In this document: positions 8,765 to 61,026 of the stretch, in pieces
Layout of the letters: every line of letters begins with the position of its first letter
How positions within the stretch are numbered: the first letter of the stretch is position 1
Position numbers and translations under genes: made by a program
The notes under the pieces: model-generated
What the model saw: the letters and a program-made list of their open reading frames with translations, nothing else
The model's database searches: none
Told to the model about the DNA's origin: nothing
Origin: a virus
Lineage: Duplodnaviria; Caudoviricetes
Virus record (IMG/VR): IMGVR_UViG_3300020577_009873
Location: 4,638-68,637 of that record
Reading direction: 5' to 3' (one strand)
Length of the DNA: 64,000 nucleotides

Positions 8765-9997
8765 ATGGCAAAATCACAATCAAAAGAAGTAAAAAAATTT
8801 GAATTCTCCAAAGTTGGAGCAATATTAGATAATATAGCAAAAACAGTTCCAATTCATATTGATAAAGAGATGAGAGAAAAAACCTATATTTCTACTGGCA
8901 GTTATGTTTTAAATGCTGCTCTATCTGGATCGCTATTTGGTGGAATAGGGGATCAAGGTATATCAACTTTTGGTGGACCAGAAGCTAGTGGAAAAACATT
9001 CTTAGCATTAAATATAATGAGAGAAGCACAGAAGAAAGGATATTGTGTAATTTACATTGATACCGAATCCGCTATTAATAGGTTAGACCTACCAAAATAT
9101 GGTATTGATAACTCAGCAGAAAAATTTATTATAATTAGAGGAAATCAAGTTGAAGAATTAAATGTTACATTAACAACATTGATAGATGAGTTAAAAAAGG
9201 CTAAGATCGAAGGATATGAGTTACCTAAACAAATTTGGGCATTAGATTCACTCGGACAACTTTCTTCTAAAAAATCTAAAGAAGATTTATTAAAAGGTGA
9301 TATAAAAGCAGATGTTGGTAATAAAGCAAAAGCAATTGGATCTTTATTTGTATCTATAACAGCTGATATAAACTACCTTCGCATACCAATGGTGATAAAT
9401 AACCAAACATACGAAACAATGGAGATGTTCAGCCAAACGATCATGAAGGGAGGAAGACAGTTATATTATTCATCGAATAATATAACATTTTTAACAAAAG
9501 CTAAATTAAAAGAGGGAGCAGATGATTTAGATATAACAGGTCAATCAGGTGTTGTAGTTACTTGTAAATGTGTTAAAAATAGATTAGTTAAGCCTAAGCA
9601 AGTAAAAATAGAAATTTCTTTTGAAAAGGGAATGAATCCATATAAAGGACTTTTAGAATTTTGTAGGCCAGAATTTTTTAAGCAAATTGGAATTGGTAGG
9701 GGAAAATATGAGATTGATAAAAAAACGGGAGAAATGACATTTGTTCCAGGAAGTGGAAAATGGTATGTTAGTCATTTAGACAAATCTTTTTATGAGGGAC
9801 AGATGTATAATTCGGAAGTATTTACCGAAGATGTTCTCAAAAGCATGGAACCGATTATAAATAATTATTTTAAATATAAAAGTATATCAGAACAAGAAGA
9901 AGTAGAAAGAGAATTTGAAAAATTAATAGGAAATGAAGATATAGATACCGCTGACGAGTTCCAAGATGATGTAGATGCTGGTGATTTATTTTCTTAA
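8765..9997 (+). CDS. uvsX: RecA/UvsX-like recombinase
   Basis: Walker A GPEASGKT, YIDTES, LDSLG, KGG motifs. Confidence 0.92.
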   Translation: MAKSQSKEVKKFEFSKVGAILDNIAKTVPIHIDKEMREKTYISTGSYVLNAALSGSLFGGIGDQGISTFGGPEASGKTFLALNIMREAQKKGYCVIYIDTESAINRLDLPKYGIDNSAEKFIIIRGNQVEELNVTLTTLIDELKKAKIEGYELPKQIWALDSLGQLSSKKSKEDLLKGDIKADVGNKAKAIGSLFVSITADINYLRIPMVINNQTYETMEMFSQTIMKGGRQLYYSSNNITFLTKAKLKEGADDLDITGQSGVVVTCKCVKNRLVKPKQVKIEISFEKGMNPYKGLLEFCRPEFFKQIGIGRGKYEIDKKTGEMTFVPGSGKWYVSHLDKSFYEGQMYNSEVFTEDVLKSMEPIINNYFKYKSISEQEEVEREFEKLIGNEDIDTADEFQDDVDAGDLFS

Positions 9998-21591: not shown

Positions 21592-21617
21592 ATTATTTTT
21601 GTTAATTTTTTGAAAAT

Positions 21618-21648
21618 AAAAAAACCCCAAGAAAAATTCCTTGGGGTT
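21618..21648 (-). terminator. ileS attenuator terminator
   Basis: minus strand AACCCCAAG-GAATTTTT-CTTGGGGTT followed by T-tract. Confidence 0.9.
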
Positions 21649-21670
21649 CAATTTTGATAATAGTTATCCA

Positions 21671-21736
21671 TTATCCAATTGGCTTTAGCCAAGGAATCGT
21701 ATAATGAATAATTATAATATTTTTGTGATTAAACAT
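21671..21736 (-). CDS. Ile leader peptide MFNHKNIIIIHYTIPWLKPIG
   Basis: four tandem Ile codons; ATTCCTTGG complementary to terminator arm CCAAGGAAT. Confidence 0.9.
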   Translation of the reverse strand: MFNHKNIIIIHYTIPWLKPIG

Positions 21737-21769
21737 AATGTTTATAGTTTTTTTATCTTTATTGTTTTA

Positions 21770-21777
21770 CAAATATA
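21770..21777 (-). promoter_or_regulatory. Bacteroidota -7 promoter box for the Ile leader
   Basis: TATATTTG on the minus strand. Confidence 0.65.
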
Positions 21778-21801
21778 TGAAAATAAATTGAAAACAAAAA
21801 A

Positions 21802-22788
21802 TTATCTTGCATAATGTCGAATTATACCCCTTCTTAAAATTTCTGCACCTTTTTTAATTCTTTTGTCAATGTATTTGAAAAATCCATCAACCGATAAGCT
21901 TTTAATTAATTCTGGATCAATTGAGGTGTCGGGTCCATTTTCTTCTGAATCTAAAAACTTTGTAATATTATCTGCTAGTCCATTTTTCATTTCTGTTAAA
22001 ACCTCTTCTGGATTCCTATCTGGCATTGACTTCTTAATTTCATCAACTAAAGTTTGCTTAAATGATACAGGATCAAATGATGATAATCTCTGATAAAAAT
22101 CCCAACTTGGTGTTTTCTCTTTCATTTCATCAAATGAGTATTTCTTAGTATATGGGTAAGCGTCTTGAGTCATGGCATTCAATTCATGTCTTTCCGTCCA
22201 ATAGATATAATATCCAAACTCTTTCCACCATATATTCCACACACTATCTGGAACATCCGCAGCATTAACATCGAGTGCGTAGGTAACTGAAGTTGGTATA
22301 ACTGGCTTACCTCTTTTATACCTATTATATCCCTCAAAAGAGTGGTTTAGTTCATGTACTAATCCGGATTCTAATTCAATTTCTAATCCATCAATATCAT
22401 CAAATTTATCCTCATTTATAATACCACCGACTTCAATTTTTAAAAGTGATTTTCCATCCTCTGTTTCCTCAAAATCTTCACAAGCTCCAGTGGTTGTAAA
22501 ATGTTTTCCTCTTGAACTTATTGTAGGAAATTTATTAGTAAACTCTTCATTAGAAATTTTGTCAAATGTAACTAAAAGTTCAATTTTTGTAATTGGGTAT
22601 TTATCTGTTACGGCTGATGCAATTTCTTCTTCAAATTCTAATTTTTCCTCAAATTTTGATACATCTTTGGAATAAAAGTCTTGGAATTTTTCCTTGACAT
22701 ATTTCATTAATATATCACTATACTTCAATGTTTCTTCCGAAACACCAAGTTTTTCGAGTATAAAATCTTGGAATTTAAAAATTTTCAT
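21802..22788 (-). CDS. HExxH putative metallopeptidase with N-terminal MKIFKFQDFILE tag
   Basis: LVHELNH and a downstream ELNA. Confidence 0.65.
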   Translation of the reverse strand: MKIFKFQDFILEKLGVSEETLKYSDILMKYVKEKFQDFYSKDVSKFEEKLEFEEEIASAVTDKYPITKIELLVTFDKISNEEFTNKFPTISSRGKHFTTTGACEDFEETEDGKSLLKIEVGGIINEDKFDDIDGLEIELESGLVHELNHSFEGYNRYKRGKPVIPTSVTYALDVNAADVPDSVWNIWWKEFGYYIYWTERHELNAMTQDAYPYTKKYSFDEMKEKTPSWDFYQRLSSFDPVSFKQTLVDEIKKSMPDRNPEEVLTEMKNGLADNITKFLDSEENGPDTSIDPELIKSLSVDGFFKYIDKRIKKGAEILRRGIIRHYAR

Positions 22789-22818
22789 ATATTATATATT
22801 AATATATAATATTCTAAA

Positions 22819-23361
22819 ATGAAATATATTAAAACATATGAAGACCATGAAGATTTACTTAATTCACTTAAAAAATTAAGTGATCAAATGAGTAGATTAA
22901 AAATCTTAACAAAGATGGATATTCGTCATAAAACTCCGAAAGAGATATATGAAGATTTCTTCTTAGAATTTAAAGAATCAGAAGGATTCAAAATAGAGAT
23001 TCACGGACGTAGCAACAACGGCATAGGTCCTATAAGCGTTGACTTATATAATATGATCGATAAAGATATTATAGAATCTGAATTTTATAGATATGTTGAT
23101 AAATTGAAGTCAATTAAAAGTAGGTTAGAAAATTATATGAATTTTGATTGTCATTTTACGATATCATTAAATGGTAAAGAACAAAATGTACAAGTAGGAT
23201 ATGACCGAAGAAATGATGAATTTAAATTTTCAGGACTAGGTGATAAAAAAAGCGGATATGATGGAAATGGACAATATTATACAAATATCAATGGTATCGC
23301 TGGATCTAAAAATTTTCCAGATGATAAAGTTTCTATGATAATAAAATTTTATATCATTTAA
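22819..23361 (+). CDS. hypothetical protein with N-terminal MKYIKTYE tag
   Basis: AATATATA upstream. Confidence 0.75.
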   Translation: MKYIKTYEDHEDLLNSLKKLSDQMSRLKILTKMDIRHKTPKEIYEDFFLEFKESEGFKIEIHGRSNNGIGPISVDLYNMIDKDIIESEFYRYVDKLKSIKSRLENYMNFDCHFTISLNGKEQNVQVGYDRRNDEFKFSGLGDKKSGYDGNGQYYTNINGIAGSKNFPDDKVSMIIKFYII

Positions 23362-24200
23362 ATTTTCTCACCCTTTGTCTCATCATAGTATCTCCATGTA
23401 AATCCTTTAACAATTATAAATTTTCCATTTTTCTTATTTAATTTTCTCCTGCAACAAGAAATTAAATTAGATTTACCAATATCATTGTTAGATGATGCTT
23501 CTCTAATAGAATCATATATTTGTAGTAATCTACCATTCAAATCATATTTACAAACTTTTCTACTATTAGCCTGTATATTTTTGTTATATGGGACATAATC
23601 AAATTTGTCTCCCTTGTATCTAAATGTTGTTGATGTTATATCATCTTCCTTTCTCCAAAAATGTTTACCACCAACAGTATAGTATGATTTTTTTTTACAA
23701 CACAATGATATTAGATATATATGATTTCCTGATTTTCTACTAGCATCTATCAAAGATTCATATTCATTTAAAATATTTCCATTTAGGTCATATTCTATAA
23801 CAGGAGTCATATATTTATATTTGGAATCATGTATTTTCTTTTTTGATGAATCTTTATGTTTTCTGCCATTCCAGTCAACACCAAATTCACCACCTTCGCT
23901 AAGGTTTGTTAGTCGAAATCCATCATCTTTAAATTTCCTAACCCAATATATTTCTAATTCATTTACATTTGATGAATCACATTCCTGAATAATGTTCATT
24001 ATTGGTTTTTCTCCAACTTTCAAAAGTGATTTTATCCAATTAGATTTATGTGTATTTTTATCATATTTTTCTAGATAACACTTTTGTAAATGCCGTTTAT
24101 ATCTATTTTTTGGATTATTAGTTTTCCCAATATATCTAACTTCATTGGTAATTGGATCTGAAAGTGAATAAATAAATTGTTTCTTTAATATTTTTTCCAT
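23358..24200 (-). mobile_element. GIY-YIG homing endonuclease with NUMOD1 repeats
   Basis: FIYSL...RYIGKT; two YDLNG...Y.S..EAS modules. Confidence 0.85.
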
Positions 24201-24256
24201 AATTTTGTTTTTGATATTTTATATATATATTATATAAATAAACTAGATACTCCTAT

Positions 24257-25876
24257 ATGAAATACATTAAAAAACGAAATAGTTTCTTAAAAGAAAGTAA
24301 GACTATGAAAGATGATGCTCTACACATCTTGGCAACACATGATGACAACCAATCCTCTGATATTAAAGAGGTTTTAGATGACCTAGATAAAACAAAAGTT
24401 TCCTCTAGGGTTATTACCAGGTTTGCCCCTTCTCCAACTGGAAAACTTCACATTGGGGGAATACGCACTGCATTATATAACTATCTATTTGCTAAAAAGC
24501 ACAATGGTATATTTTATGTTCGTATAGAAGATACTGATCAAAAAAGATTCGACTCTGAAGCAGAAGATTATATTAAGAACGCGTTAGAATGGGTTGGTAT
24601 TGAAACAGATTGGGATCCATGGAAGGGGGGTCCAAATGGTCCTTATCGCCAATCCGAAAGGGATTATACTGGACACATCAAAACTCTATTGGATGCTGGT
24701 CATGCTTATTATGCTTTTGATACTGAACAAGATTTAAATTTAGTAAGAAAGGATAATCAAAACTTTGCCTATGATGTAAAGTCAAGAATGAATATGAAAA
24801 ACTCTCTTTCTTTATCAAAAGAAGAAGTTGATAAATTACTTGAAAATAAAGCACCATATGTAATTAGATTTAAGGTTCCTGAAAACAAAACTATTAAATT
24901 TACTGATATCGTTAGAGGTGATGTTTCTTTTAATAGTGCTCAAGTTGATGATAAGGTATTAGTTAAATCAAATGGTATTCCTACTTATCATATGGCATCC
25001 GTATGTGATGATCATGATATGGGAACAACACACGTTATTAGAGGTGAAGAGTGGCTACCGTCTGCCCCATTACATGTCATGTTATATGAAGCATTTGGTT
25101 GGGATGCCCCGCAATTTGCTCACTTACCTTCAATTCTTAAGCCAGATGGTAAAGGAAAACTTTCAAAAAGGGATGGACTCAAATTAGGTATTCCAGTATT
25201 TCCATTTGGTGGAGAGGGAGTAGATGATAAAGGAAATACCGTTAAATATAAAGGATTTAAAGACGAAGGATTTGAACCAGACGCACTTGTAAACTTCTTA
25301 TTGTTATTAGGATGGGCACCAAGTGATGGTAAAGAAATTTATAATTTAGCTGAAATGATTTCTGACTTCTCTCTTGATAGAGTTCATAAAGCAGGAGCTA
25401 GATTTGATATGGATAAAGCAAAGTGGTTTAATAGTGGATATCTTCAAAATAAATCAGATGCTGAATTATTAAGTCATATTGATATGGGTAACACCTATAA
25501 ATATGATGATGATAAATTATCAATGATTGTTGATTTGTGTAAAAAGAGAAGCACTTTTAAAACTGATATGCAGGTTGTTGCTGATATCTTCTTTAAACCA
25601 GTAATTCTTGGAGAAAAGGAATTAAAAAGCTTATCAGAAGACTATAAAAAAGTTTTTGTAGACTTTGTTGAAAAAGCATCATCAATTGATTGGGAAATGG
25701 AAAAGGTTAAACAATTAATTTTTGATATCTGTGCAGAAAAAGGAATTAAAATGGGTAAAGTAATGCCGTCATTAAGAATGTCTGTTACGGGTGGTGTCCC
25801 AGGACCAGATTTAATGACCACAATGTTTATTTTAGGAAAAGAAGAAAGCCTAAAAAGAATTAAAAATTCTTTATAA
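24257..25876 (+). CDS. gltX: glutamyl-tRNA synthetase with ~50-aa N-terminal extension
   Basis: TRFAPSPTG, HIGG, RIEDTD, YRQSER, HVIRGEEW, KLSKR. Confidence 0.95.
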   Translation: MKYIKKRNSFLKESKTMKDDALHILATHDDNQSSDIKEVLDDLDKTKVSSRVITRFAPSPTGKLHIGGIRTALYNYLFAKKHNGIFYVRIEDTDQKRFDSEAEDYIKNALEWVGIETDWDPWKGGPNGPYRQSERDYTGHIKTLLDAGHAYYAFDTEQDLNLVRKDNQNFAYDVKSRMNMKNSLSLSKEEVDKLLENKAPYVIRFKVPENKTIKFTDIVRGDVSFNSAQVDDKVLVKSNGIPTYHMASVCDDHDMGTTHVIRGEEWLPSAPLHVMLYEAFGWDAPQFAHLPSILKPDGKGKLSKRDGLKLGIPVFPFGGEGVDDKGNTVKYKGFKDEGFEPDALVNFLLLLGWAPSDGKEIYNLAEMISDFSLDRVHKAGARFDMDKAKWFNSGYLQNKSDAELLSHIDMGNTYKYDDDKLSMIVDLCKKRSTFKTDMQVVADIFFKPVILGEKELKSLSEDYKKVFVDFVEKASSIDWEMEKVKQLIFDICAEKGIKMGKVMPSLRMSVTGGVPGPDLMTTMFILGKEESLKRIKNSL

Positions 25877-25887
25877 AAAATAGGATA

Positions 25888-26229
25888 ATGATGAATATTA
25901 GAAAATTTAATGAAATGGATACATTCAATATTACATTCTCTTCTAAAGAAGAATTTATAAAATTTTGGAGTGATAGATGGAAAGGAACTAATGCGGAAAA
26001 GTTTCCAAAAGAATTTATAGAAACTTTTGAGACACAATTTGATTATTCGGAATGGGAAAAAGAAAATTATAATTATGGAAGCGAATTTGATGCGGATAGT
26101 GAGATCGAAAATATTGACTCTGAATTTGGAATTGCAATAGGAGACGACGAAGACTGTGATATATCCTCTGATGAGTGGGTTGATTTTTATAACAGTTGTT
26201 GGACATGGTTAAAAAATAATAAAAAATAA
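25888..26229 (+). CDS. acidic hypothetical protein with N-terminal MNIRKFNE tag
   Basis: ORF with shared N-terminal motif. Confidence 0.75.
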   Translation: MMNIRKFNEMDTFNITFSSKEEFIKFWSDRWKGTNAEKFPKEFIETFETQFDYSEWEKENYNYGSEFDADSEIENIDSEFGIAIGDDEDCDISSDEWVDFYNSCWTWLKNNKK

Positions 26230-27023
26230 TGAAATATTTAGAAAGTTATGATGGGTATGGTGAACTTAACGTCGTTTGTGATGAATCTTGTTACTCATTA
26301 GCGAGCACATACCTAAATAAGTTAGATAAAAAATCAACTATATCTAGTAAAGAAGGTAATTCATCTGTTATATCTGCGATTAAAACTCTTATATCAAAAG
26401 GATCTAACAATATTTTAGTTATATTAGATGATAGGGGAGAATTAAAAGATCAAATGGATGAAAGACTTGATTTTTTAAGAGGTTTTATGGGTGAGCGGGA
26501 TTATAAAAAACTCGATGTAAAAATGGTATCTGAATTAAAGATAAGTGAGAGTAAATTATATGAAGAAGCAACATTTAAAAAGTCAGATTTTAATATTTAT
26601 AAAATCAGAGTTTATGCTGATGGTATTGATGTTGTTAAAAGTAAATTTGATGGAGATCCAATTCAACATAATGAAAGAGCTAAGGAATATGTAGACTTTT
26701 TTGGAAAAATGGTTGAAAAAGTAACTGGACAATCAATGAGATATTATTATAACAAATATATGTTCTTTGCAAAAGAATCGGTTGTTGAGTTGTTAAAGGC
26801 TGATTATGATATTCGAGTAGTAGAAGGAGAAGAATATAATTGGTGGTTTGTACCTAAAGAAAATAAAGAAGTATCAGATTGGATAGAAAAAAATTGCAAA
26901 CTACCATTCAGAAAAGCTTTAAGAAGTCCTAATTTCGCTTCTTTAGATAGTGATAGTAGTGATTATTGGAGAAAAAAGGCTGAAGAACTTACAAAGGATT
27001 ATAAAATGAAAAATAATTTATAG
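26229..27023 (+). CDS. hypothetical protein
   Basis: ORF starting MKYLESYD. Confidence 0.75.
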   Translation: MKYLESYDGYGELNVVCDESCYSLASTYLNKLDKKSTISSKEGNSSVISAIKTLISKGSNNILVILDDRGELKDQMDERLDFLRGFMGERDYKKLDVKMVSELKISESKLYEEATFKKSDFNIYKIRVYADGIDVVKSKFDGDPIQHNERAKEYVDFFGKMVEKVTGQSMRYYYNKYMFFAKESVVELLKADYDIRVVEGEEYNWWFVPKENKEVSDWIEKNCKLPFRKALRSPNFASLDSDSSDYWRKKAEELTKDYKMKNNL

Positions 27024-27197
27024 GAAGAAGTAAAACATTCAAAAAAAATTCACCCAAAAGCTTTTAAGGAGTGAGGAAAAAGAGTTAAGATTAGATTTAA
27101 ACTTAATATGGCATGTTTATGAGGATGAGATTACTGATGCAGAAAATTTTTCGGTAATAACAAGATGGTAAAAATAAACTATTTATAAAAAATTTCG

Positions 27198-27205
27198 TAT
27201 ATTTG
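27198..27205 (+). promoter_or_regulatory. Bacteroidota -7 promoter box for the Val leader
   Basis: CG-TATATTTG-T, 4 nt before the leader ATG. Confidence 0.75.
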
Positions 27206-27209
27206 TAAT

Positions 27210-27263
27210 ATGAATATCAATTTAAATATCGTCGTGGTATCAACATCTGTCCGATGTTGGTAA
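27210..27263 (+). CDS. Val leader peptide MNINLNIVVVSTSVRCW
   Basis: GTC GTG GTA tandem plus GTC; GATGTTGG pairs with CAACATC (27241) or with terminator arm CCAACATC. Confidence 0.9.
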   Translation: MNINLNIVVVSTSVRCW

Positions 27264-27284
27264 TTTTTACGCCTAAAATTATAC

Positions 27285-27318
27285 AAACCCCAACATCAAA
27301 AAATGTTGGGGTTTTTTT
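27285..27318 (+). terminator. valS attenuator terminator
   Basis: AAACCCCAACAT-loop-ATGTTGGGGTTT followed by TTTT. Confidence 0.9.
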
Positions 27319-27379
27319 ATTTCAAAAAATAAAAAAACCACCACTGACTAATAGTGGAAATTAAAAAATTAATATATAA

Positions 27380-28192
27380 ATGAAAAAAATAGAAATGATA
27401 ATTTACGGACTATTCTCCTCAGAGTCACCATCTGATATTAGATATATTGGAAAGGCAACCAATATTAAAGACAGACTAAGAAGACATCTATCAAAGTATA
27501 GTTTGAAGAACGATACATATAAAAACAGATGGATAAAATCTGAAATAAATAAAGGAAATAAAATAGAAATTGCAATCATAGAAGAGGTTAGTGAAAGCAA
27601 TTGGGAAAAAGCAGAAATTTTTTGGATATCCGAATTTAGAAAACTAGGGTATAACTTAACAAATTCGACTATTGGTGGAGATGGAATAGTTCCAACGAAT
27701 GAAATTATAAATAAAAGGGGTAAAACCAAAATTACAAACAATTTAAAAAATAAATCGGAATTAATTGAAAAGTTCAATATAAGAGAAATAAATAACATGT
27801 GGGTTGGTGAGAGGGTCTGCCCAAAATGTGGTAAAATAATCAGATATGAATTATCAAATATTAATAAACTAATATCTCTTTGTAAAAAATCTATTGATAG
27901 GAAATGTTTATCTTGTAGTAGTACAGACAAAACACCATTTAGAAATCATAAGTGGTCTACAAAAGGAATGAAATATAAAACCAATAACAGCAAATTAATT
28001 AGAGAAAAATATGGTAAAAAAATACAACAATTTGATAAAGATGGAAATTTAATTGATGAATTTAATTCCATTAGAGAAGCAAATTCAATTACAAAAATTG
28101 ATAGAAAAAGTATATCACAATGTATTAAAGGAACCAGAATAACAGCTGGAGGATACATTTTCAAACAAAAAATGAATAATTATGAAAAATAA
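27380..28192 (+). mobile_element. GIY-YIG homing endonuclease with NUMOD1
   Basis: IIYGL...RYIGKA, NLTNSTIGGDG, FNSIREA...TAGGYIF. Confidence 0.85.
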
Positions 28193-29525
28193 ATTTTTAA
28201 TAGATACTCCCCCACCAACAATTAGCGGAAGTCAAGGACTTCATATCGGACATATATTTTCCTATACACAAGGTGATTTAATTGCAAAATATAAAAGATT
28301 TATTGGCAATGATATTATCTACCCGTTTGGGATAGACAATAATGGCATACCTACCCAAAAAAGCGCATCTAACAAGGGAATAAAAGGAACGAAAGAAATA
28401 ATTGACTTCTCACTTAAAAGGGGAGAAGATTACAAATCAACATTTAAAATGTGCGGCATTACTTTTGAAAATGGACAAGATTATCATACCTATAATAATC
28501 TTTCACTAGATATTTGCTATCAAGCATTTGAAATTTTAAAGAAAAAGGGAATTGCCTATAAGGCAAACACAGAATATCTGTGGTCTGAAAAATTAAAAAC
28601 TTCTATTTCACAATCTGAATTAAATGAAGAAGGATTGATTGAAAGAACTGGAGAAACTCCAATTATTAAAAGTGGTGAGGGGTGGTTTATTAATTTAAAA
28701 GATCATTTGCCACAGATAAAAGAAATGATAGATAAAATAGAATGGAAACCAATTAAATTCAAGAAAAGAATTGATGATTGGATTGAAAATATAAAATGGG
28801 ATTGGTCAATCTCAAGAGAAAGAAATTTTGGAATTCAAATTCCTGGTGAAGAAACATTTACCTTTGATACTTGGTTCATTTCATCACTATCTCCGCAAAT
28901 TGCTTGGTCGTCATATAAAGGATATAATGATATGCTGAATTGTCCAATATTTGATATGAGATTTCAATCACATGATATTATTAGAACTTGGGCATTTTAT
29001 ACAATTGCTATGTCCTATTTTATTAATGGTCAAATTCCTTGGAAAACAATTATGATAACAGGTCATACTTTAGATGGAAATGGGGATAAATTTAGTAAAT
29101 CAAGTGGTAATGCAACTCCGCCAAAGCCATTAATTGATAAGTATGGTATATCAGGAATTAGATATTGGGCTTTTTCTAGTACGTTAGGAACCGATACTAA
29201 GATTGATGAGAATAAGATGAAAATAGGCTGGAGAATTATTAATAAATTAAAAAATGCTGAAAAGTTTATTAATATGCAAATAGAAAATAATTGGATTGGT
29301 GAGAAAGAGGAGTATTATTCTAAGTGGTTAGAACAAAAGAATATGATATTTGAATATTTAGAAGAATATGAAATTGATAAAGCAAATGGTGCTTTATATG
29401 AATTTTTCTGGGACACATTTTGTTCTACTTGGATTGAGGAGTCTAAAAAAGAATCAATATCATTAACATTAATTAAAATACTTAATGAAATAAAAGGTAT
29501 TATAAATTTCATTTATATAAAATAA
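28182..29525 (+). CDS. valS: minimal valyl-tRNA synthetase
   Basis: DTPPPTISG, HIGH, DWSISRER, FDTWF, DIIRTW, KFSKS; Val leader upstream. Confidence 0.85.
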   Translation: MKNKFLIDTPPPTISGSQGLHIGHIFSYTQGDLIAKYKRFIGNDIIYPFGIDNNGIPTQKSASNKGIKGTKEIIDFSLKRGEDYKSTFKMCGITFENGQDYHTYNNLSLDICYQAFEILKKKGIAYKANTEYLWSEKLKTSISQSELNEEGLIERTGETPIIKSGEGWFINLKDHLPQIKEMIDKIEWKPIKFKKRIDDWIENIKWDWSISRERNFGIQIPGEETFTFDTWFISSLSPQIAWSSYKGYNDMLNCPIFDMRFQSHDIIRTWAFYTIAMSYFINGQIPWKTIMITGHTLDGNGDKFSKSSGNATPPKPLIDKYGISGIRYWAFSSTLGTDTKIDENKMKIGWRIINKLKNAEKFINMQIENNWIGEKEEYYSKWLEQKNMIFEYLEEYEIDKANGALYEFFWDTFCSTWIEESKKESISLTLIKILNEIKGIINFIYIK

Positions 29526-29558
29526 AAAAACCCTCAAATTAATTTGAGGGTTTTTTTA
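29524..29558. terminator. bidirectional terminator
   Basis: A-tract, CCCTCAAAT/ATTTGAGGG, T-tract between convergent genes. Confidence 0.85.
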
Positions 29559-29562
29559 ATTC

Positions 29563-30657
29563 TTAAACAACGGGTGTTAAGAATATTTTTCGATTGTGCC
29601 TATCAACAGCGATTACCTTTACCTTTACTTCCTCGCCATCAGATAAATCTTTGTTCACCTTTTCTAACTCGGAGATATGTATTAGTCCGATTGTTTCCTG
29701 GTCTAAGAAAACAAGCGTTCCGAACTGTTTATTTTCTTTAACCTTACCAGTTAATACTTGACCATTTTTAATGGAATCCCAAAGAGAGTCTCTTAAAATT
29801 TGAGTTAAGATGATTTTGTCTTTGATAATTTCCTTAACATAGAATTGAATTTCTGTGCCAGGTTGAATTTGTGCAAGTTTGTCTTGCCATTCAGGGTTGA
29901 TGTTTGTTTTGTGAATCATACCTGTTAAACATTCACCAAATTCAACGAATACTCCGAACGGTGTTGTTCCTGTAACGTTTCCATTATAAACCTCACCTCT
30001 TTGTAATTTCTTAATTGCTTCTGGAATAAGTGTTTGTAGATATTTTCTTCTACTAACAATATATGTACCTTCATCCCTAGAATATGATTCAATCATAACT
30101 TCAAGATTTTTACCGATAATTGATTCGGTGTCATATAATTTGTTAATACCAGCGAGTGTGTTTGGCATAAACCCTGGCAATGTTACTCCCTCATACAATA
30201 CATCAACATTGTATCCAGCCGGAGTTAGTTCTCTAACGAAGACATTCACGTGCTGATCTTCATCAATTGATTTGAGTGTTTCGTGCGCTCTGCTTTCATA
30301 GAGACTGGATAGTCCTCCTTTAATCATAAAGGTCACTTCGTCAACTTCAACGATGATAACATCTACTTTATCACCAACATTTGTATTTTTTAAATACTTA
30401 GCTTCGTTTGGTTTATTTTCAATTCTGATATAATCCTTGAAATTACCATCAAACATTAAAAATTCTGTAGTCTGTCCTACATAAATTGCGTGTACAATTT
30501 CACCTTCAACAGGAGATTGGAATGTGTACCCGTCATACATTTTTTCAAGAATAGCATTCTGTAATTTCCATTCTCTTTGTTGTTTCTCTAAATCGAAGTC
30601 AAAGTCTTCACCGACTTCCATTAGTTTAAATTTTTTGTTATAAAATTTGTTATTCAT
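29563..30657 (-). CDS. ribosomal protein S1-like protein
   Basis: repeated S1 OB-folds: TPFGVFVE...GMIHKT and QFGTLVF...GLIHISEL...VKVKVIAVD. Confidence 0.85.
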   Translation of the reverse strand: MNNKFYNKKFKLMEVGEDFDFDLEKQQREWKLQNAILEKMYDGYTFQSPVEGEIVHAIYVGQTTEFLMFDGNFKDYIRIENKPNEAKYLKNTNVGDKVDVIIVEVDEVTFMIKGGLSSLYESRAHETLKSIDEDQHVNVFVRELTPAGYNVDVLYEGVTLPGFMPNTLAGINKLYDTESIIGKNLEVMIESYSRDEGTYIVSRRKYLQTLIPEAIKKLQRGEVYNGNVTGTTPFGVFVEFGECLTGMIHKTNINPEWQDKLAQIQPGTEIQFYVKEIIKDKIILTQILRDSLWDSIKNGQVLTGKVKENKQFGTLVFLDQETIGLIHISELEKVNKDLSDGEEVKVKVIAVDRHNRKIFLTPVV

Positions 30658-39417: not shown

Positions 39418-39778
39418 TTTCGAAGACTTTATAGAAGAAATTAAGGAAACATCAAAAAATTATGTAATTATATGTGGATTTACTGATATAAAAGATGCTG
39501 CATTGATTAATACCAGTCACTATATAATGCTTGGGTATGCAGATGAAAAAGATATCAAAGAAGCTTTATCGTATATTGAAGAATTACCAGAAATAGAAGG
39601 CGAATATGAATTCGATGCTGTGTTTAGATGGGTTTCGGATGATTATGATGATATGGGTCGGATTACACTTAGGGGATATTTGGAAGAAAAATACACTAAA
39701 TTCACTCTAATTCAGACACTTATACAACGAGAAAGAGAGGAAAAAATTGACAACTTTTTCGATTTTAATTTTGATTAA
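39410..39778 (+). CDS. hypothetical protein
   Basis: ORF ending REEKIDNFF. Confidence 0.7.
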   Translation: MDNFEDFIEEIKETSKNYVIICGFTDIKDAALINTSHYIMLGYADEKDIKEALSYIEELPEIEGEYEFDAVFRWVSDDYDDMGRITLRGYLEEKYTKFTLIQTLIQREREEKIDNFFDFNFD

Positions 39779-39806
39779 TTCGATAAATTATCGTATATTT
39801 GTAAAA

Positions 39807-41669
39807 ATGATTAATATGATTCAAGAACTGCGTAATAAAATAGTCGAGGCCAATAAGTTATATAGGATCGGCAAGCCTATTATCTCTGATTCCAAGTATG
39901 ACCAATTAGTTGAAGAATTGGCTCTATTATCACCAGATGATGAATTACTCACAAGTGTTGGGCACACTGTTTCCGATGAACGTAAAAGCCGACTTCCAAT
40001 TGAAATGGCTTCTATGAATAAAATTAAAACTATGGATGATATCAATGATTGGTGTCGTCTTAAATCTATTCCCAAAACCGAAAAGGTTATTATCACACCA
40101 AAATTTGATGGGCTTTCTCTTTGTGTAGATGAAACATCAGACTCTGCTTGGACTCGTGGTGATGGTGAGTTTGGTCAAAAATCAAACGAACACTACAAAC
40201 TAATTAAAAATCACCTATATGCGGATTTAGAAGGAAACTTCGATCCATTTTCACCTATACCCTTTAAGTTTACTTATGGGGAGGTTATGATGCCTAAAAG
40301 TGTATTCGTTAAAAAATACTCGGAAGAATTTGCCAATCCAAGAAATTTGGTTGGGGGTCTTTTAAATTCTAAAGATGCCACTGATCCATTAAAAGATTGT
40401 AACTATATTAAATATGGTGCAATTCCTGACGAAAGGTTCAATTTCTCAACTAAACAAGAAATTATTGATGAACTTAACAACGGACAAACTATTGGTGTAA
40501 ACTATTTTGTTTGTAAGGTTTCTGAATTGACAGAAGATTTGTTAATTGATTTATTTCACAAATGGTCTGTTGATTATGAAATTGATGGTGTAATCATCGA
40601 AATAAATGATCTTAAATTACAAAATAAATTAGGTCGTGAGACCTCTTCAAATAATCCGGTATGGGCTCGCGCATTTAAACACGAAAGTTTTGAACAATGT
40701 GCTGAGACTGAAGTTATCGGCATCTCTTGGAATATATCCAAACAAGGATATCTCAAACCAACTCTACACGTTAGTCCAATTAAACTTGATGGTGTTACTG
40801 TTTCTAATGTAACTGGTAATAATGCTAGATTCGTGAAAGATTTAGGTCTTGGAGTCGGCGCTAAGGTCATTATTAAACGATCTGGAATGGTTATTCCTTT
40901 GATTGTAGACGTAGTAGAAACGGTAGACTTTGTGATGCCAGATGTTCCTAATATTGATTGGAATGAAAATGGTGTTGAACTAATGACACTTAACGAAACT
41001 GATGATCAAAAGCTAAAACAATTGATTGCCTTTTTTAAAATTCTTGATGTTAAAAATGTATCAGAAGGTGTAATTAATCAATTCTGGAATGCCGGATATA
41101 AAACAGTTAAGGATATTTTGAATCTTACTAAAAGTGATATGGAGAAATTGGATAGATTTGGTAAGAGGAAAGCCACTATTGTATATGATGCTATTCAAAA
41201 ATGTATTAACAATGTGAGCTTGTCAAAACTGCAACATGCTACTGGCCTTTTTAAAGGTCTAGGTTCCAAGAAACTTGCCTTGTTGGAACATTTCACCAAA
41301 AAGCCTACCATTAATCAAGTAATGGAAATTGAAGGATTTGCTGAAATTTCTGCCCAATCATATATAGATAATTATGATACTTTCTTTAATTTTATTAAGG
41401 ATTTACCAATTACCATTGAAGAAAAAGTTGAAGTAGTCCTATCTGATACTGGATTAGAAGGCACCTCATTTGTATTTACTGGCGTTCGTCGTCCAGATCT
41501 AGAGGGTATTATTGTATCTCGTGGTGGTAAAATTGGTGGAGCTGTTTCTAAAAACACTACACACCTTGTAATGAAGGCGGTTGGTAGTGGATCTTCTAAA
41601 GAAAAGAAAGCTATTGAATTAGGTGTTGAAATTATTACTGTTGAACAATTAGAAAAGTTATTAAAATGA
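39807..41669 (+). CDS. ligA: NAD-dependent DNA ligase
   Basis: PKFDG, TRGDG, ANPRN, YEIDG, HhH and BRCT; TATATTTG box at 39794-39801. Confidence 0.95.
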   Translation: MINMIQELRNKIVEANKLYRIGKPIISDSKYDQLVEELALLSPDDELLTSVGHTVSDERKSRLPIEMASMNKIKTMDDINDWCRLKSIPKTEKVIITPKFDGLSLCVDETSDSAWTRGDGEFGQKSNEHYKLIKNHLYADLEGNFDPFSPIPFKFTYGEVMMPKSVFVKKYSEEFANPRNLVGGLLNSKDATDPLKDCNYIKYGAIPDERFNFSTKQEIIDELNNGQTIGVNYFVCKVSELTEDLLIDLFHKWSVDYEIDGVIIEINDLKLQNKLGRETSSNNPVWARAFKHESFEQCAETEVIGISWNISKQGYLKPTLHVSPIKLDGVTVSNVTGNNARFVKDLGLGVGAKVIIKRSGMVIPLIVDVVETVDFVMPDVPNIDWNENGVELMTLNETDDQKLKQLIAFFKILDVKNVSEGVINQFWNAGYKTVKDILNLTKSDMEKLDRFGKRKATIVYDAIQKCINNVSLSKLQHATGLFKGLGSKKLALLEHFTKKPTINQVMEIEGFAEISAQSYIDNYDTFFNFIKDLPITIEEKVEVVLSDTGLEGTSFVFTGVRRPDLEGIIVSRGGKIGGAVSKNTTHLVMKAVGSGSSKEKKAIELGVEIITVEQLEKLLK

Positions 41670-43829: not shown

Positions 43830-44435
43830 ATGTTAAATTTAACGGCAATTAAATCATTTTCGGACCATGAAAAACTATTCAAAGAAAGAACAGGCAACGA
43901 TTTTACTCACTTTTACAAGAAGTACTATCCAAAATTAATCTATTACACTGCTAAAATGTGTAATGATGTACAAAAAGCAGAGGATGTAACTACAGAATCC
44001 TTTATGACAGCTTTCGAAAAAATCGATAAATACGAAAAGGAAAAATCTCAATTTTCAACTTGGTTATTTACTATAGCACGTAACATTATGTTACAAGAAA
44101 TAAAGAATCAAAAAAAGACAGTATCAATTGATGTAGAAGTTGATGAAGAAGGAACTACTCTAAAGGACTTTATCCAAGAGGCTGAGAGTTACGATCATAT
44201 CAATAAACTTACTACAAAAAAGGCTGATATTATGAAATACCATATTTCAAGACTTAAAGATCCTTATAAAAAAGTAATTGAGATGAGAGAAATCAAAAAA
44301 ATGCAATATAAAGATATTGCAACCGAATTAAACTTAAACCTATCAACAGTTAAAAGTCAAATAAGAAATGGTAGAGCTCTTCTAATAAAAAGTGCTAAAA
44401 AGGAATTTGATCTTTTAGATGATATGTATCTATAA
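43830..44435 (+). CDS. ECF-type RNA polymerase sigma factor
   Basis: region 2 AEDV...FSTWLFTIARN; region 4 YKDIATELNLNLSTVKSQIRNGR. Confidence 0.92.
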   Translation: MLNLTAIKSFSDHEKLFKERTGNDFTHFYKKYYPKLIYYTAKMCNDVQKAEDVTTESFMTAFEKIDKYEKEKSQFSTWLFTIARNIMLQEIKNQKKTVSIDVEVDEEGTTLKDFIQEAESYDHINKLTTKKADIMKYHISRLKDPYKKVIEMREIKKMQYKDIATELNLNLSTVKSQIRNGRALLIKSAKKEFDLLDDMYL

Positions 44436-53767: not shown

Positions 53768-54391
53768 ATGAGAGAAATTAAAGAAAATACGTACAAGGGA
53801 ACAAGAATTCTATTAGGAAATGAAAAAAGAGATTTAATTAATAGAATGATAGATGTTCTAAAAGATAGAGGATATATGGAAATTCAAATTCCAATTATTC
53901 AAAATCTAGAAACCTTTAGAAATAAGGTAGGTGATGAAAATAGAAATATGATGTTTTTATTTTCTGATAGAGGAAATAGAGAATTGTGTTTGGCTCCTGA
54001 ATATACCGCGGTAATTCAGTCATTGAGTGATACATTCAAATATAGTAAAGATGTTAAATTGTTCTATGTTCAAGAATGTTTCAGAGGTGAAAGACCACAA
54101 GCAGGTAGATACAGACAGTTTACACAATTAGGTGTAGAGATAATTAATCCAAGTATGGATTATGTTGAAGAACTTTCTTCATTAGCACTCGAACTAGTGT
54201 CAAATGGTAATGTTGATAGATTCAAAGTAGATATGAGTGTTACAAGAGGATTAGATTATTATAAAGATGGAAAAGGATTTGAAATATCCTGTGATGAATT
54301 AGGAGCTCAAAAACAAGTGTGTGGTGGGGGTGAATATGATGGTGGAATTGGGTTCGCGATTGGAATTGATAGAATATTGTTGATTAATTAA
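53768..54391 (+). CDS. hisS: minimal histidyl-tRNA synthetase (catalytic domain only)
   Basis: KGTR, LAPEYTA, FRGERPQAGRYRQFTQLGVE, RGLDYY, GGGEYD, GFAIGIDRI. Confidence 0.88.
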   Translation: MREIKENTYKGTRILLGNEKRDLINRMIDVLKDRGYMEIQIPIIQNLETFRNKVGDENRNMMFLFSDRGNRELCLAPEYTAVIQSLSDTFKYSKDVKLFYVQECFRGERPQAGRYRQFTQLGVEIINPSMDYVEELSSLALELVSNGNVDRFKVDMSVTRGLDYYKDGKGFEISCDELGAQKQVCGGGEYDGGIGFAIGIDRILLIN

Positions 54392-54395
54392 ATAT

Positions 54396-54483
54396 GGTGG
54401 TATTAGTGTCAGCGGTGAGTCTGAAAAGACGAGCACGATACTCTGTGAAAGTATTAGCACCGGTTCAAATCCGGTATATCACC
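54396..54483 (+). tRNA. tRNA-His(GTG) with D-loop hairpin insertion
   Basis: G-1/C73; ATACT-CTGTGAA-AGTAT; T-loop TTCAAAT. Confidence 0.85.
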
Positions 54484-54488
54484 CAAAA

Positions 54489-54564
54489 GGAAGCGGTAGC
54501 TCAGTCAGGTAGAGCAGCGGGGCCAAAATCCCGCGTGTCAGTGGTTCAAATCCATTCCCTTCCA
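54489..54564 (+). tRNA. atypical tRNA with 8-nt anticodon loop (contains CCA; identity uncertain)
   Basis: normal D and T arms; GCGGG-GCCAAAAT-CCCGC; bulged acceptor stem. Confidence 0.65.
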
Positions 54565-54569
54565 CAAAT

Positions 54570-54653
54570 GGTGCAGTAGCTGAGGTGGTGGCGAAAGCCT
54601 ATAGCGCTTGGTCTGAAAAACCAGAGACACCGGTTCGAGCCCGGTCTGTACCA
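54570..54653 (+). tRNA. tRNA-Phe(GAA) with D-loop hairpin insertion
   Basis: GGTGCAG/CTGTACC; TGGT-CTGAAAA-ACCA. Confidence 0.85.
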
Positions 54654-54658
54654 CATAA

Positions 54659-54734
54659 GGTGAACAAGCTAACTTGGTAGAAGCGCCAGACTGAAAATCT
54701 GGAGGATCCGGATCGTAACCGGAGTTCACCACCA
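54659..54734 (+). tRNA. tRNA-Phe(GAA)
   Basis: GGTGAAC/GTTCACC with ACCA; CCAGA-CTGAAAA-TCTGG. Confidence 0.9.
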
Positions 54735-54737
54735 AAT

Positions 54738-54811
54738 GGTGTCTGTAGCTCAATCGGAAGAGCGCAAGTTTGTGGAACTTGAGGCAGCGGGATCGAAACC
54801 CGTCAGACACC
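54738..54811 (+). tRNA. tRNA-His(GTG)
   Basis: G-1/C73; CAAGT-TTGTGGA-ACTTG. Confidence 0.9.
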
Positions 54812-54818
54812 CAAACAT

Positions 54819-54900
54819 ACATCCGCTCATAAGCGTGACCAGCCGGTTCCAACCCGGTAATGCGTAAGCGTGGTTAAGAGTTCGAATCTCTTCGGGTGTT
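54819..54900 (+). tRNA. atypical tRNA(CCA) with reduced D-arm and long variable arm
   Basis: ACATCCG/CGGGTGT; GCCGG-TTCCAAC-CCGGT; AAGAG-TTCGAAT-CTCTT. Confidence 0.7.
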
Positions 54901-54908
54901 CAAAACAT

Positions 54909-54979
54909 ACGTTTGTGGTGCAATGGTAGCATATCGGTCTCCAAAACCGCAGATTCGGGTTCGAGTCCTGACAAGCGTA
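54909..54979 (+). tRNA. tRNA-Trp(CCA)
   Basis: ACGTTTG/CAAGCGT; CGGT-CTCCAAA-ACCG. Confidence 0.88.
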
Positions 54980-55038
54980 CAAATAGGAATACCCAACAGG
55001 GTAAAAAATTATCAGATGAAACTAGAAAAAAATGTCAA

Positions 55039-55782
55039 ATGCTAAAAAAGGAAAAAAATATAAAATACCTAGTGGGGATTCAGCCGACAGGGAAGCTAAC
55101 AATAGGTAACTACCTAGGTTGTTTAAAGAAAGGCCTAAGGCTTCAAGAGGAAGGGCATGATGTTACCTTCTTGATAGCAAACTACCATTCTCTAACAACT
55201 GATAGTTATACTGATGTAACTGAACAGGAATTAATTAAATTAGGTTGTAAGAATATAAAAAGACAAATTCCTGAATATACTGAGTTGTTTTTCAAACTAT
55301 GTTGTAAGTTAAACTTGGGAACATTATTGAAAATGCCTCAATATAAAGACAAAAAGGAAAATGTAGAATTTGACTTGGGATTGATGTTATATCCTGTATT
55401 AATGGCAGCTGATATCATCATTAACGACCCAGATGTAGTAATTGTTGGTAAAGACCAAATAGCTCACTTAGACCTATGTAATGATATTTCTAAGAGATTT
55501 AATGGTAAGTATTACAATTATGAATTAGGTGATGTAGATAAGATTATGTCATTGGCTGATCCAACAAAAAAGATGTCAAAATCTTTGGGAGAAAAACATG
55601 TTCTTTATATCTTTGATGAAAACTATGAAGCAAAAATAAAAAAGGCAAACGCCAACGAAGAGGGTCTTGAAAATCTAAAAAAGATTGGAACAGGAATCGG
55701 AGTTGATGTTGATAAATATGAAATGAATTCTGATTTAAAGAAGGCTATTTCAGACAAAATGAATGAAATTTTTAACAAGTAA
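55039..55782 (+). CDS. trpS: compact tryptophanyl-tRNA synthetase
   Basis: GIQPTGKLTIGNYLG, YPVLMAADI, VGKDQ, KKMSKS; the longer track start overlaps tRNA-Trp. Confidence 0.92.
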   Translation: MLKKEKNIKYLVGIQPTGKLTIGNYLGCLKKGLRLQEEGHDVTFLIANYHSLTTDSYTDVTEQELIKLGCKNIKRQIPEYTELFFKLCCKLNLGTLLKMPQYKDKKENVEFDLGLMLYPVLMAADIIINDPDVVIVGKDQIAHLDLCNDISKRFNGKYYNYELGDVDKIMSLADPTKKMSKSLGEKHVLYIFDENYEAKIKKANANEEGLENLKKIGTGIGVDVDKYEMNSDLKKAISDKMNEIFNK

Positions 55783-55920: not shown

Positions 55921-56343
55921 ATGCAAAAAACATATGAATGCAAAGAAATTAATGGATATGAAAATTATTTAATATCTACAAACGGTGATGTTTATAATAA
56001 AAAAACAGGCCGTAAAATGAAAACTAGAATAACCAAAACTGGATATGTAGATGTTTCTATTTGTAATGAAAAAGGAGCTAAAACATTTTTAATACATCGA
56101 CTTGTGGCGATGACACATATTGATAATGTATTTAATAAGCCCTTTGTCAATCATAAGGATCATGATAGAAAAAATAATAATGTTAGTAATCTAGAGTGGG
56201 TGACAGCAGAAGAAAACTCAAATCATATGTTTAGAAAAAAGAAAAAAGGGACTATTTCAAAAACTAAAATTATTGATATTTATGAAAGTAAAAAATGGAA
56301 AAATGTTGAGGATTTTTATAAAGAAATAATTGATAAATATTAA
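55921..56343 (+). mobile_element. NUMOD4-HNH homing endonuclease
   Basis: YLISTNGDV; IHRLVA...VNHKDHDRKNNNVSNLEW. Confidence 0.9.
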
Positions 56344-56421: not shown

Positions 56422-56505
56422 TCCTTCGTAGCAAAATTGGTAAGGCGCTTGACTTTTAATCAAGAGTCCGAAAGGACATTCCGGGTTCGAGTCCCGGCGG
56501 GGGAA
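56422..56505 (+). tRNA. tRNA-Lys(TTT) with long variable arm
   Basis: CTTGA-CTTTTAA-TCAAG followed by GTCC-GAAA-GGAC. Confidence 0.85.
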
Positions 56506-60453: not shown

Positions 60454-61026
60454 ATGAAATACACAGTATATAAAATAACAAATTTAATAAACGGTAAAAT
60501 TTATATCGGAGTTCATAAAACAGAAAATTTAGACGATGGATATATGGGATCTGGTAAAAATATAAAAAGAGCTATTGACAAATATGGAATTCAAAATTTT
60601 AAAAAAGAATATATTAAAATATTTGACAATCAAGAAGATATGTTTAAAATGGAGTCTGAGTTGGTAAATGAGTTATTTTTATCTAGTCGTGAGAATTATA
60701 ATATAATGAAAGGAGGCCATGGAGGATTTGAACATATAAATAAAAATTGTTGGGATAAAGAAAGTAGAAAAAATCATTTACAAAAAATATACAATTTGGT
60801 TTCAGCTGAAAAAAGAAAGGATATCGGAGCATATATGGGTAAAAATTTTGGAGGTAGTAATAGATTAAGAGAGGATGTAATAAATTATAGATTAAAAATA
60901 CTCGAAACAGTTGACATGTCTAAATATGGTTGGGTAGAAAAAGCTAGTAAATTACTAAATATAACCCATACACAAGTTAGGAGATTTGTAAATAAATATT
61001 ATACGGGGGAATATTATAGAAGATAA
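60454..61026 (+). mobile_element. GIY-YIG (Seg-like) homing endonuclease inside the tRNA array
   Basis: TVYKITNLINGKIYIGVH...YMGSG...YN. Confidence 0.88.

Follow-up and report, generated by a model that had tools for sequence, protein, structure and literature searches.

A GNRA-capped hairpin in the D-loop of tRNAs from a clade of huge phages: a candidate fifth arm

Introduction

Bacterial-type transfer RNAs (tRNAs) share the cloverleaf, one of the most constant of RNA shapes, and the textbook view confines additional arms to the variable region of the tRNAs for Leu, Ser, Tyr and selenocysteine (Sec). A 64,000-nucleotide (nt) stretch of DNA from a virus of the Caudoviricetes (positions 4,638 to 68,637 of the IMG/VR record IMGVR_UViG_3300020577_009873, here called the window) contains a tRNA-His gene and a tRNA-Phe gene that each have an additional GAAA-capped hairpin inside the D-loop. 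Are these hairpins a structural arm of working tRNAs, a tolerated insertion, the mark of RNAs with another task, or introns? The 64-kb window is part of a 68.6-kb record with a completeness estimate of 13%. Its closest relatives in GenBank are the uncultured phages LR756502, LR756501 and LR745206 (634-735 kb), and it is a fragment of a huge phage related to them. A preliminary description of the window, made from its letters alone, had reported the two hairpins and reasoned that a common site and a common loop with different stems argue for selection. We found that the trait extends across the clade and is paralleled by long variable arms on class-I tRNAs, points that were absent from that description.

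Structure of the two hairpin tRNAs

The tRNA-His(GTG) and tRNA-Phe(GAA) genes (Table 1) both pass a strict scanner of our own, which requires a perfect 7-base-pair (bp) acceptor stem, a perfect T-stem with G53-C61, a T-loop motif, a D-stem, a 5-bp anticodon stem and a 7-nt loop. Both have 7/7 acceptor pairs, 5/5 T-stem pairs, a 7-nt T-loop of the TTCRA type and G53-C61, and in both the 5-bp anticodon stem closes a 7-nt loop with T33 and a purine at position 37. The tRNA-His combines its 7-bp acceptor stem with the D-stem GTGT/GCAC, the anticodon loop CTGTGAA, a 4-nt variable region and the T-arm ACCGG-TTCAAAT-CCGGT. The tRNA-Phe has a 7-bp acceptor stem, the D-stem GCTG/TAGC, the anticodon loop CTGAAAA, a 4-nt variable region and a T-arm, and 2 nt, instead of 1, separate its D-stem from its anticodon stem.

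G18G19 is kept in both genes, and the D-loops of 23 nt (His) and 19 nt (Phe) exceed the canonical length of about 7-11 nt. The coordinates and sequences that the preliminary description gave for the hairpins match the letters of the window exactly. In tRNA-His the hairpin stands 3 nt past G18G19 and 2 nt ahead of the 3' D-stem strand, and in tRNA-Phe it stands 1 nt past G18G19. Without the hairpin the D-loop would have an ordinary length, 11 nt in His and 9 nt in Phe as well as in the hairpin tRNA-Cys genes described below. Both hairpins form in unconstrained minimum-energy folds and contribute -4.5 kcal/mol (His) and -5.3 kcal/mol (Phe) to the energy of the cloverleaf; the His hairpin also forms in the minimum-energy fold with the cloverleaf enforced. 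The preliminary description credited each gene with an uninserted twin in the same array. A second Phe gene and a second His gene are indeed present (Table 1), as different paralogues and not as near-identical copies.

Hairpin tRNAs in related phages

Loci of relatives were anchored on the HisRS-like and TrpRS-like genes, and the tRNA clusters of five large relatives were added. The strict scan of these 413 kb of clade loci gave 289 distinct tRNA-like sequences, with a D-loop of 6-12 nt in 267 and of at least 14 nt in 21. The scanner misses many real tRNAs (in the window it found 6 plus the 2 hairpin genes, against 13-15 by Rfam and ARAGORN), so the counts per amino acid are lower bounds. Fifteen of the 21 long-D-loop candidates, from 11 related phage genomes, were accepted as hairpin tRNAs: six for Cys, three each for His and Phe, two for Lys and one for Gly (Table 2). 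The preliminary description had named lack of conservation in relatives, along with lack of expression or charging, as what would speak against its idea; the hairpin does recur in relatives. The other six candidates were dropped for a doubtful fold or a weak hairpin: L044 Asp(ATC), L051 Phe (D-loop 14 nt, variable region 12 nt), L053 Leu(TAA), L041 'Pro(AGG)', L006 'Ser(GGA)' and L041 Gly (GC-CAAA-GC). A relaxed scanner (6/7 acceptor and 4/5 T-stem pairs) was also tried and given up; its 880 candidates had flat D-loop lengths and were mostly noise in AT-rich DNA.

The site of the insert is constant in all 15 genes, 1-3 nt past G18G19 and 2-3 nt ahead of the 3' D-stem strand. The stem is 2-5 bp long, and the loops are GAAA, GTAA, TTA, GTCA and one of 9 nt, with a GNRA loop in 12/15 and GAAA itself in 11/15. 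The variable region is 4-5 nt in all 15, that is, none has a class II-type arm at positions 44-48. The features expected of each identity are retained. All three hairpin His genes start with GGTG and end with CACC or TACC, and thus have an encoded G-1:C73 together with the GTG anticodon. The CysRS identity elements include the T73 discriminator and the GCA anticodon, and both are present in 6/6 hairpin Cys genes. Phage and bacterial copies of tRNA-Cys share a G/A mismatch at position 13:22. In LR756502 and LR745206 the hairpin copy is the only tRNA-Cys found in the partial strict scan.

Three other explanations were rejected. A shared mobile mini-element does not account for the hairpins, as their sequences differ among the tRNAs. 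Against an assembly artefact, the genes recur in IMG/VR on a separate contig and also in other runs; the near-identical contig G022 has both window genes unchanged. Against pseudogenes speak the intact cloverleaves and the covarying stems. IMG/VR scans with the D-arm flanks of the window genes returned the near-identical IMGVR_UViG_3300015608_003242 and five chance matches in GC-rich phages, with no new orthologues. A tRNA-Cys D-arm pattern matched 87 stretches in IMG/VR and 6 in JGI metagenomes. Only 2 of the matches in each collection were real tRNAs; the two from IMG/VR had been known before, and the two from JGI had the same sequence as known copies. Either the trait is rare in IMG/VR and the JGI metagenomes, or the D-arm sequence is too variable for exact patterns.

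Standard tools handle these genes poorly. ARAGORN called none of the 15 correctly, giving 3 with wrong anticodons and missing 12; in the window it missed the His hairpin gene and called the Phe hairpin gene Tyr(ata). The Rfam tRNA model (RF00005; gathering cut-off 29 bits) scored the His gene at 26.3 bits, below the cut-off, and the Phe gene at 31.0 bits, above it, and in both alignments the 5' half was misaligned, with a start inside the D-loop and a mispaired acceptor stem. It follows that the numbers of tRNAs listed for huge phages are probably too low and that some of these genes bear wrong labels.

Covariation and control genomes

When the six tRNA-Cys genes that bear the hairpin were aligned with plain tRNA-Cys from phages and bacteria, the hairpin helix was paired in 18/18 cells, and both sides had changed in 3/3 hairpin pairs. 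When covariation was scored over the whole structure, the observed score was reached in 0/500 shuffles, and slid registers collapsed. A four-sequence version of this analysis also shows compensatory changes. In the Cys and Phe alignments the insert is a clean block that is gapped in the plain orthologues, and for the plain Phe orthologues L001:4156-4227, L013:1437-1508 and L019:1385-1456 the gap falls exactly at the hairpin. MAFFT alignments that mixed isoacceptors misplaced the 5' half and were excluded from the pair counts. The compensatory changes in relatives (His, Phe, Cys, Lys, Gly) strongly support the preliminary argument that one site and one loop with different stems indicate selection.

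We examined bacterial genomes with a covariance model, R1, built from four hairpin tRNA-Cys genes, which scores the phage hairpin tRNA-Cys genes at 85-104 bits over 83-84 nt. The putative host phylum was chosen through G023, a metagenome-assembled genome titled 'uncultured Bacteroidetes' that holds a TrpRS-like fragment. Among 151 genomes of this phylum 113 had matches to R1, and all 115 listed tRNA-Cys matches were 70-74 nt long and scored at most 75.8 bits; the hairpin is absent from these sampled genes. R1 scored higher on the bacterial tRNA-Cys of this phylum (up to 75.8 bits) than on the phages' own plain Cys genes (58-68 bits). The strict scanner found no hairpin D-loop in any of three control sets: unrelated viral loci (747 kb, with 3 tRNA-like sequences), the T5 tRNA region (25 kb, with 13) and bacterial loci (22 kb, with 17). 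The sole long-D-region candidate in T5 (AY543070; L170:10513-10597, minus strand) lies inside the annotated 'RNA1, tRNA-like stable RNA with unknown functions', an old unexplained RNA with a tRNA-like acceptor/T domain.

Long variable arms as a second site

Long variable arms are normally limited to the tRNAs for Leu, Ser, Tyr and Sec. In the clade loci the strict scan found 36 class-I tRNAs with a variable region of at least 9 nt, many of them GAAA-capped. They comprise Lys 15/33, Gln 4/16, Thr 4/11, Trp 3/12, Cys 2/15 and Glu 2/15, with single cases for His, Ile, Met, Asn, Val and Arg, at loci within L001-L059 and L147-L158 (for example L001:4481-4749, L013:2425-2690 and L154:197-482). ARAGORN lists more long genes for Asn, Met, Arg and Lys, of 85-92 nt. 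For tRNA-Cys, six genomes have the arm in the D-loop and two have it in the variable region, and no accepted tRNA has inserts at both places. In the window, the variable arm of tRNA-Lys(TTT) (Table 1) is the same hairpin module at the other permissive site. The arrangement looks like one module with two permissive sites.

Table 1. Positions in the window of the hairpin tRNA genes, their hairpins, and related or adjoining features
Feature	Coordinates	Strand	Basis
tRNA-His(GTG), encoded G-1 (54396), C73 (54483), 23-nt D-loop	54396..54483	+	cloverleaf decomposition; model R1, 31.5 bits over 54399-54481
tRNA-His D-loop hairpin GTCT-GAAA-AGAC	54419..54430	+	GTCT 54419-54422, GAAA 54423-54426, AGAC 54427-54430
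tRNA-Phe(GAA), A73, 19-nt D-loop	54570..54653	+	cloverleaf decomposition; model R1, 53.4 bits over full length
tRNA-Phe D-loop hairpin GGC-GAAA-GCC	54590..54599	+	GGC 54590-54592, GAAA 54593-54596, GCC 54597-54599
Ordinary tRNA-Phe(GAA), 9-nt D-loop, second Phe paralogue	54659..54731	+	ARAGORN; Rfam, 51 bits
Ordinary tRNA-His(GTG) with G-1, 8-nt D-loop, second His paralogue	54738..54811	+	ARAGORN; Rfam, 60.5 bits; alignment
tRNA-Lys(TTT), long variable arm GTCC-GAAA-GGAC	56422..56505	+	Rfam alignment; fold
HisRS-like protein, 207 aa, class II core only	53768..54391	+	Pfam PF13393, 1.2e-19, profile positions 14-139 of 308
TrpRS-like protein, 249 aa, downstream of tRNA array	55033..55782	+	Pfam PF00579, 4e-39; relatives found

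Table 2. D-loop hairpins of the 15 accepted tRNAs
tRNA	Source	Location	Hairpin
Cys(GCA)	G019		GAC-GAAA-GTC
Cys(GCA)	LR756502		GTC-GTAA-GAC
Cys(GCA)	LR745206		GTT-GAAA-GAC
Cys(GCA)	G002		ACC-GAAA-GGT
Cys(GCA)	G004		GCT-GAAA-AGC
Cys(GCA)	G003		GTCT-TTA-AGAC
His	window	Table 1	GTCT-GAAA-AGAC
His	G003	L013:1183-1267	GTC-GAAA-GAC
His	G017	L154:2498-2590 (-)	5-bp stem, 9-nt loop
Phe	window	Table 1	GGC-GAAA-GCC
Phe	G017	L154:1501-1583 (-)	CC-GAAA-GG
Phe	LR756501	L018:5596-5686	GGTC-GAAA-GACC
Lys(TTT)	G006		AGC-GAAA-GCG
Lys(TTT)	G001		GCC-GTCA-GGC
Gly(TCC)	G002		CGC-GAAA-GCA

A retained arm or a tolerated expansion

We tentatively interpret these genes as working elongator tRNAs with a retained fifth arm, similar to a variable arm, that sets the phage tRNAs apart from those of the host; our confidence in this stops somewhat short of even. 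The interpretation starts from what is seen in the genes: their anatomy, the insertion site, the conservation of the stems with compensatory change, and the intact anticodon loops and identity elements. The hairpin, of 10-12 nt (3-4 bp and a GAAA cap), is inserted between nucleotides 20 and 21, in the beta region of the D-loop, which is exposed to solvent, and it is expected to persist in the mature tRNA, which would be charged and used. The arm may project from the core at about the place where the class-II variable arm does, as position 20a/b adjoins the base of that arm in the tRNA-Ser/SerRS crystal structures, and the clade would have added a single module (short stem, GNRA loop) to class-I tRNAs, either in the D-loop or in the variable region. 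Selection appears to have favoured the arm, because repeated gains occurred across many isoacceptor families within a single clade, because tRNA-Cys keeps it while the stems turn over completely, and because it can occupy either of two sites. The benefit may be that the phage tRNAs are structurally distinct, so that proteins reading the D-loop or core face would treat the phage and host sets differently; candidates are host tRNA-cleaving defence nucleases, modification enzymes and phage enzymes. The arm might serve as a mark or shield separating phage from host tRNAs. The term 'fifth arm', already used in the preliminary description, is a fair one.

RNA libraries offered a view of the same region in other strains. 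Contigs of 5.2 kb and 3.7 kb from two runs (X1 and X2) of one wastewater metatranscriptome study cover 54300-54655 of the window at ~92% identity. From 54353 to 54521 they have zero differences from the window, and the His gene and its hairpin are intact, which lends slight support to a retained His hairpin. The uncovered parts of 54655-55078 in X1, X2 and a further run, X7, are no evidence either way.

Several observations weigh against a retained and useful arm. Compensatory change proves only that the hairpin needs to fold once it is present, not that it is useful. The RNA-library contigs may derive from DNA carry-over or from precursors, and they cannot prove transcription or show the mature tRNA. 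In the X1 and X2 contigs our own reconstruction gives the Phe copy a D-loop of ordinary length (8 nt) together with a variable region of 13 nt, and thus the trait turns over quickly. The minimum-energy fold of the window tRNA-Phe with the cloverleaf enforced favours another pairing in the D region. Because of this alternative pairing and because the shuffle z-scores of the whole tRNAs are modest (His -2.63, with 3/200 shuffles as good; Phe -1.51, with 14/200), the case for more than chance rests on the relatives. The trait is also patchy, the orthologous first His gene being plain in LR756502 (L001) and LR745206 (L019).

The same patchiness, with the Phe hairpin missing from the ~92%-identical contigs, would suit a neutral expansion. 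In that case a solvent-facing insertion in the D-loop would be harmless as long as it is compactly folded, and selection on the tRNA fold alone would yield both the covariation and the GNRA preference. GAAA is a very stable cap in an AT-rich genome, and stem length (2-5 bp) and loop vary, with conservation stopping at the fold. We regard a neutral origin as a serious but rather unlikely explanation. It would have to accommodate independent gains in at least five isoacceptor families, with the other type of extra arm in roughly a dozen further families and every case within a single phage clade. It would likewise have to accommodate that none was seen among the 115 listed tRNA-Cys matches from the 151 genomes of the putative host phylum or in the control loci. 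It would also have to explain why the tRNA-Cys hairpin was kept in six genomes despite full stem turnover and why, in the partial scan, it is the sole tRNA-Cys found in two large genomes.

A stronger version of the retained arm can be stated, although we think it improbable. The clade may build a private tRNA architecture, in which a GNRA-capped fifth arm would make the tRNAs immune to host tRNA cleavage or to a phage-driven purge of host tRNAs, and might also be a handle for cut-down synthetases. If true, this would amount to a partly orthogonal translation set that is invisible to current tRNA finders.

The mini-intron alternative

A retained arm presupposes that the hairpin stays in the RNA. 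The preliminary description also considered a processed mini-intron, in which the hairpin would be excised, the halves joined and a normal D-loop restored. The hairpin-free D-loops would indeed be ordinary, and LR756501 encodes RtcB-type ligases. Archaeal tRNA genes, too, have extra D-loop nucleotides, since they carry short introns at non-canonical sites including the D-loop (accessible text of PMC3241643). The phage genes, which belong to a bacterial-phage setting, differ from these in having a covarying structure and not a splice motif. No bulge-helix-bulge was found by inspection; there is a closed hairpin with single-stranded loop flanks, and not two 3-nt bulges around a 4-bp helix. The tRNA-splicing endonuclease PF01974 was above cut-off in 0/5 phage records and RtcB was found in 1/5, and among 14 control genomes PF01974 was detected only in the 4 archaea. 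The RNA-library contigs contain no joint that skips the His hairpin, a minor point because contigs drop rare forms. We know of no bacterial precedent for the excision of 10 nt from a D-loop. The mini-intron is thus very unlikely.

Dedicated tRNAs and the neighbouring synthetase gene

It is also conceivable that the hairpin tRNAs are dedicated or non-decoding RNAs, while the plain paralogues decode. They might be special substrates, decoys or regulators, for instance by partnering the truncated HisRS-like and TrpRS-like proteins, by acting as sponges for nucleases or by donating amino acids to processes other than translation. In the window, a plain paralogue of each hairpin tRNA is encoded in the same array. 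The hairpin tRNA-His lies directly behind the gene for the 207-aa HisRS core, which is without an anticodon-binding domain. In genome G002 a tRNA-His with a GAAA-capped variable arm (L010:2820-2908) lies ~90 nt upstream of the HisRS-like homologue. Precedents for both kinds of partner can be cited from the accessible parts of earlier work: engineered hairpin tags on tRNAs recruit fused synthetases (PMC7590224), and the authors of the AriB study suggest that overexpressed viral tRNAs might inhibit the nuclease.

We nevertheless consider a dedicated role quite unlikely. The anticodon loops, T33, the purine at 37, the T-loops and the identity nucleotides are canonical and conserved, which would be needless for a non-decoding RNA. 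In two large genomes the hairpin tRNA-Cys is the sole one found by the partial scan. The HisRS-like gene and the hairpin tRNA-His are inconsistently linked, being 1.7 kb apart in G003 and ~10 kb apart in G017, and most of the 16 relatives of the HisRS-like gene in IMG/VR have no tRNA directly behind the gene. The preliminary description had also proposed that the arm shields against nucleases or docks a protein such as the truncated phage synthetases; for docking of the HisRS-like protein the loci gave no specific support.

Comparison with known systems

Extra-arm tRNAs themselves are known; what is new here is the site of the arm and the amino-acid identities of the tRNAs that bear it. Class II tRNAs (Leu, Ser, Tyr) likewise have an extra solvent-exposed stem-loop on a decoding tRNA, and the ribosome and EF-Tu tolerate their variable arm. 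The phage arm differs from it in leaving the D-loop between nucleotides 20 and 21 and not at 44-48, and in being carried by tRNAs for His, Phe, Cys, Lys and Gly. According to the accessible text of PMC12360207, the variable arms of E. coli and B. subtilis tRNA-Leu have 3-5 bp and a canonical GNRA loop, and the hairpins in the window (3-4 bp and GAAA) match them in size and build.

Other natural tRNAs of non-standard shape, some of them from phages, escape routine annotation as well, namely the 8/4 and 9/3 allo-tRNAs, tRNAs with tRNA-Sec-like D-arms and 'E-loop' tRNAs (PMC5389517 and PMC7609411, as far as accessible). Those tRNAs alter the acceptor/T split, lengthen the D-stem or add a loop between acceptor and D-stem, whereas the phage hairpin tRNAs keep the 7/5 branch and a 4-bp D-stem. 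In the engineered aptamer-tagged tRNAs of Mukai 2020 (PMC7590224) a small hairpin is a protein handle on an active tRNA, also with HisRS variants. They are artificial and have the tag at the tip of the variable arm, and the available portions of that paper claim no natural counterpart. No D-loop hairpin in decoding tRNAs was found in the literature searched, which included the accessible parts of Al-Shayeb 2020 (PMC7162821), Krahn 2020 (PMC7609411), Mukai 2017 (PMC5389517) and Mukai 2020 (PMC7590224).

The T5 tRNAs for Lys, Thr and Asn offer a functional comparison. They differ from the host tRNAs, and the defence nuclease AriB of the PARIS system spares them. As described in the accessible text on T5, escape comes from point substitutions in the anticodon stem, and an inserted arm as an escape device is not described there. 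By this analogy the phage hairpin may work like the nuclease-evading tRNAs of T5. Should the arm prove to be a shield or handle, it would represent a new phage route in the tRNA-centred arms race with bacterial immunity, and a natural template for orthogonal tRNAs in genetic-code engineering. The conserved, covarying hairpin in tRNAs for His, Phe, Cys, Lys and Gly in any case shows a second permissive site for an extra arm.

Other features of the window

The tRNA arrays of the window lie at 54.4-55.0, 56.3-56.7 and 60.1-61.2 kb (ARAGORN, Rfam), and its translation module contains three class-I aminoacyl-tRNA synthetases, an S1-domain protein, the 207-aa HisRS core and the 249-aa TrpRS-like protein. 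A dense translation block at 19384-30657 comprises a 754-aa class-Ia synthetase, a 539-aa enzyme of the GluRS/GlnRS type, a 447-aa truncated class-Ia synthetase and the S1-domain protein. A RecA-like protein (8765-9997), an NAD-dependent DNA ligase (39747-41669) and a sigma factor (43830-44435) are also encoded. An 80%-identical TrpRS-like fragment is present on L159 (CAISYK010000106.1, 1.5 kb), which is binned in G023; it is either a hint to the host or a mis-binned phage contig.

Two further tRNA-like genes accompany the hairpin tRNAs. The gene at 54489-54565, between the two, has an anticodon loop of 8 nt; ARAGORN labels it 'tRNA-???', and Rfam scores it at 38.5 bits and likewise places 8 letters in the loop. 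Its counterparts in the near-identical contig L002 and in the X1 and X2 contigs keep the 8-nt loop with a different loop sequence and compensating stem changes, and it could be a quadruplet-reading or otherwise special tRNA. The gene at 54813-54905 has an intact acceptor stem, T-arm and CCA-anticodon arm, but its D region is shrunken and it bears an additional hairpin, ATGC-GTAA-GCGT. This gene was called by none of the tools and is conserved in LR756502 (L001:4230-4316) beside a normal tRNA-Trp.

The content of the arrays differs among close strains. Between the Phe gene and the TrpRS-like gene the X1/X2 variant has 1127 letters, against 422 in the window. Homing-endonuclease-like genes of the HNH (with NUMOD4) and GIY-YIG types stand between the tRNA clusters of the window (55921-56343 and 60454-61026), as in the T5 tRNA region, and may drive the quick turnover of array content.

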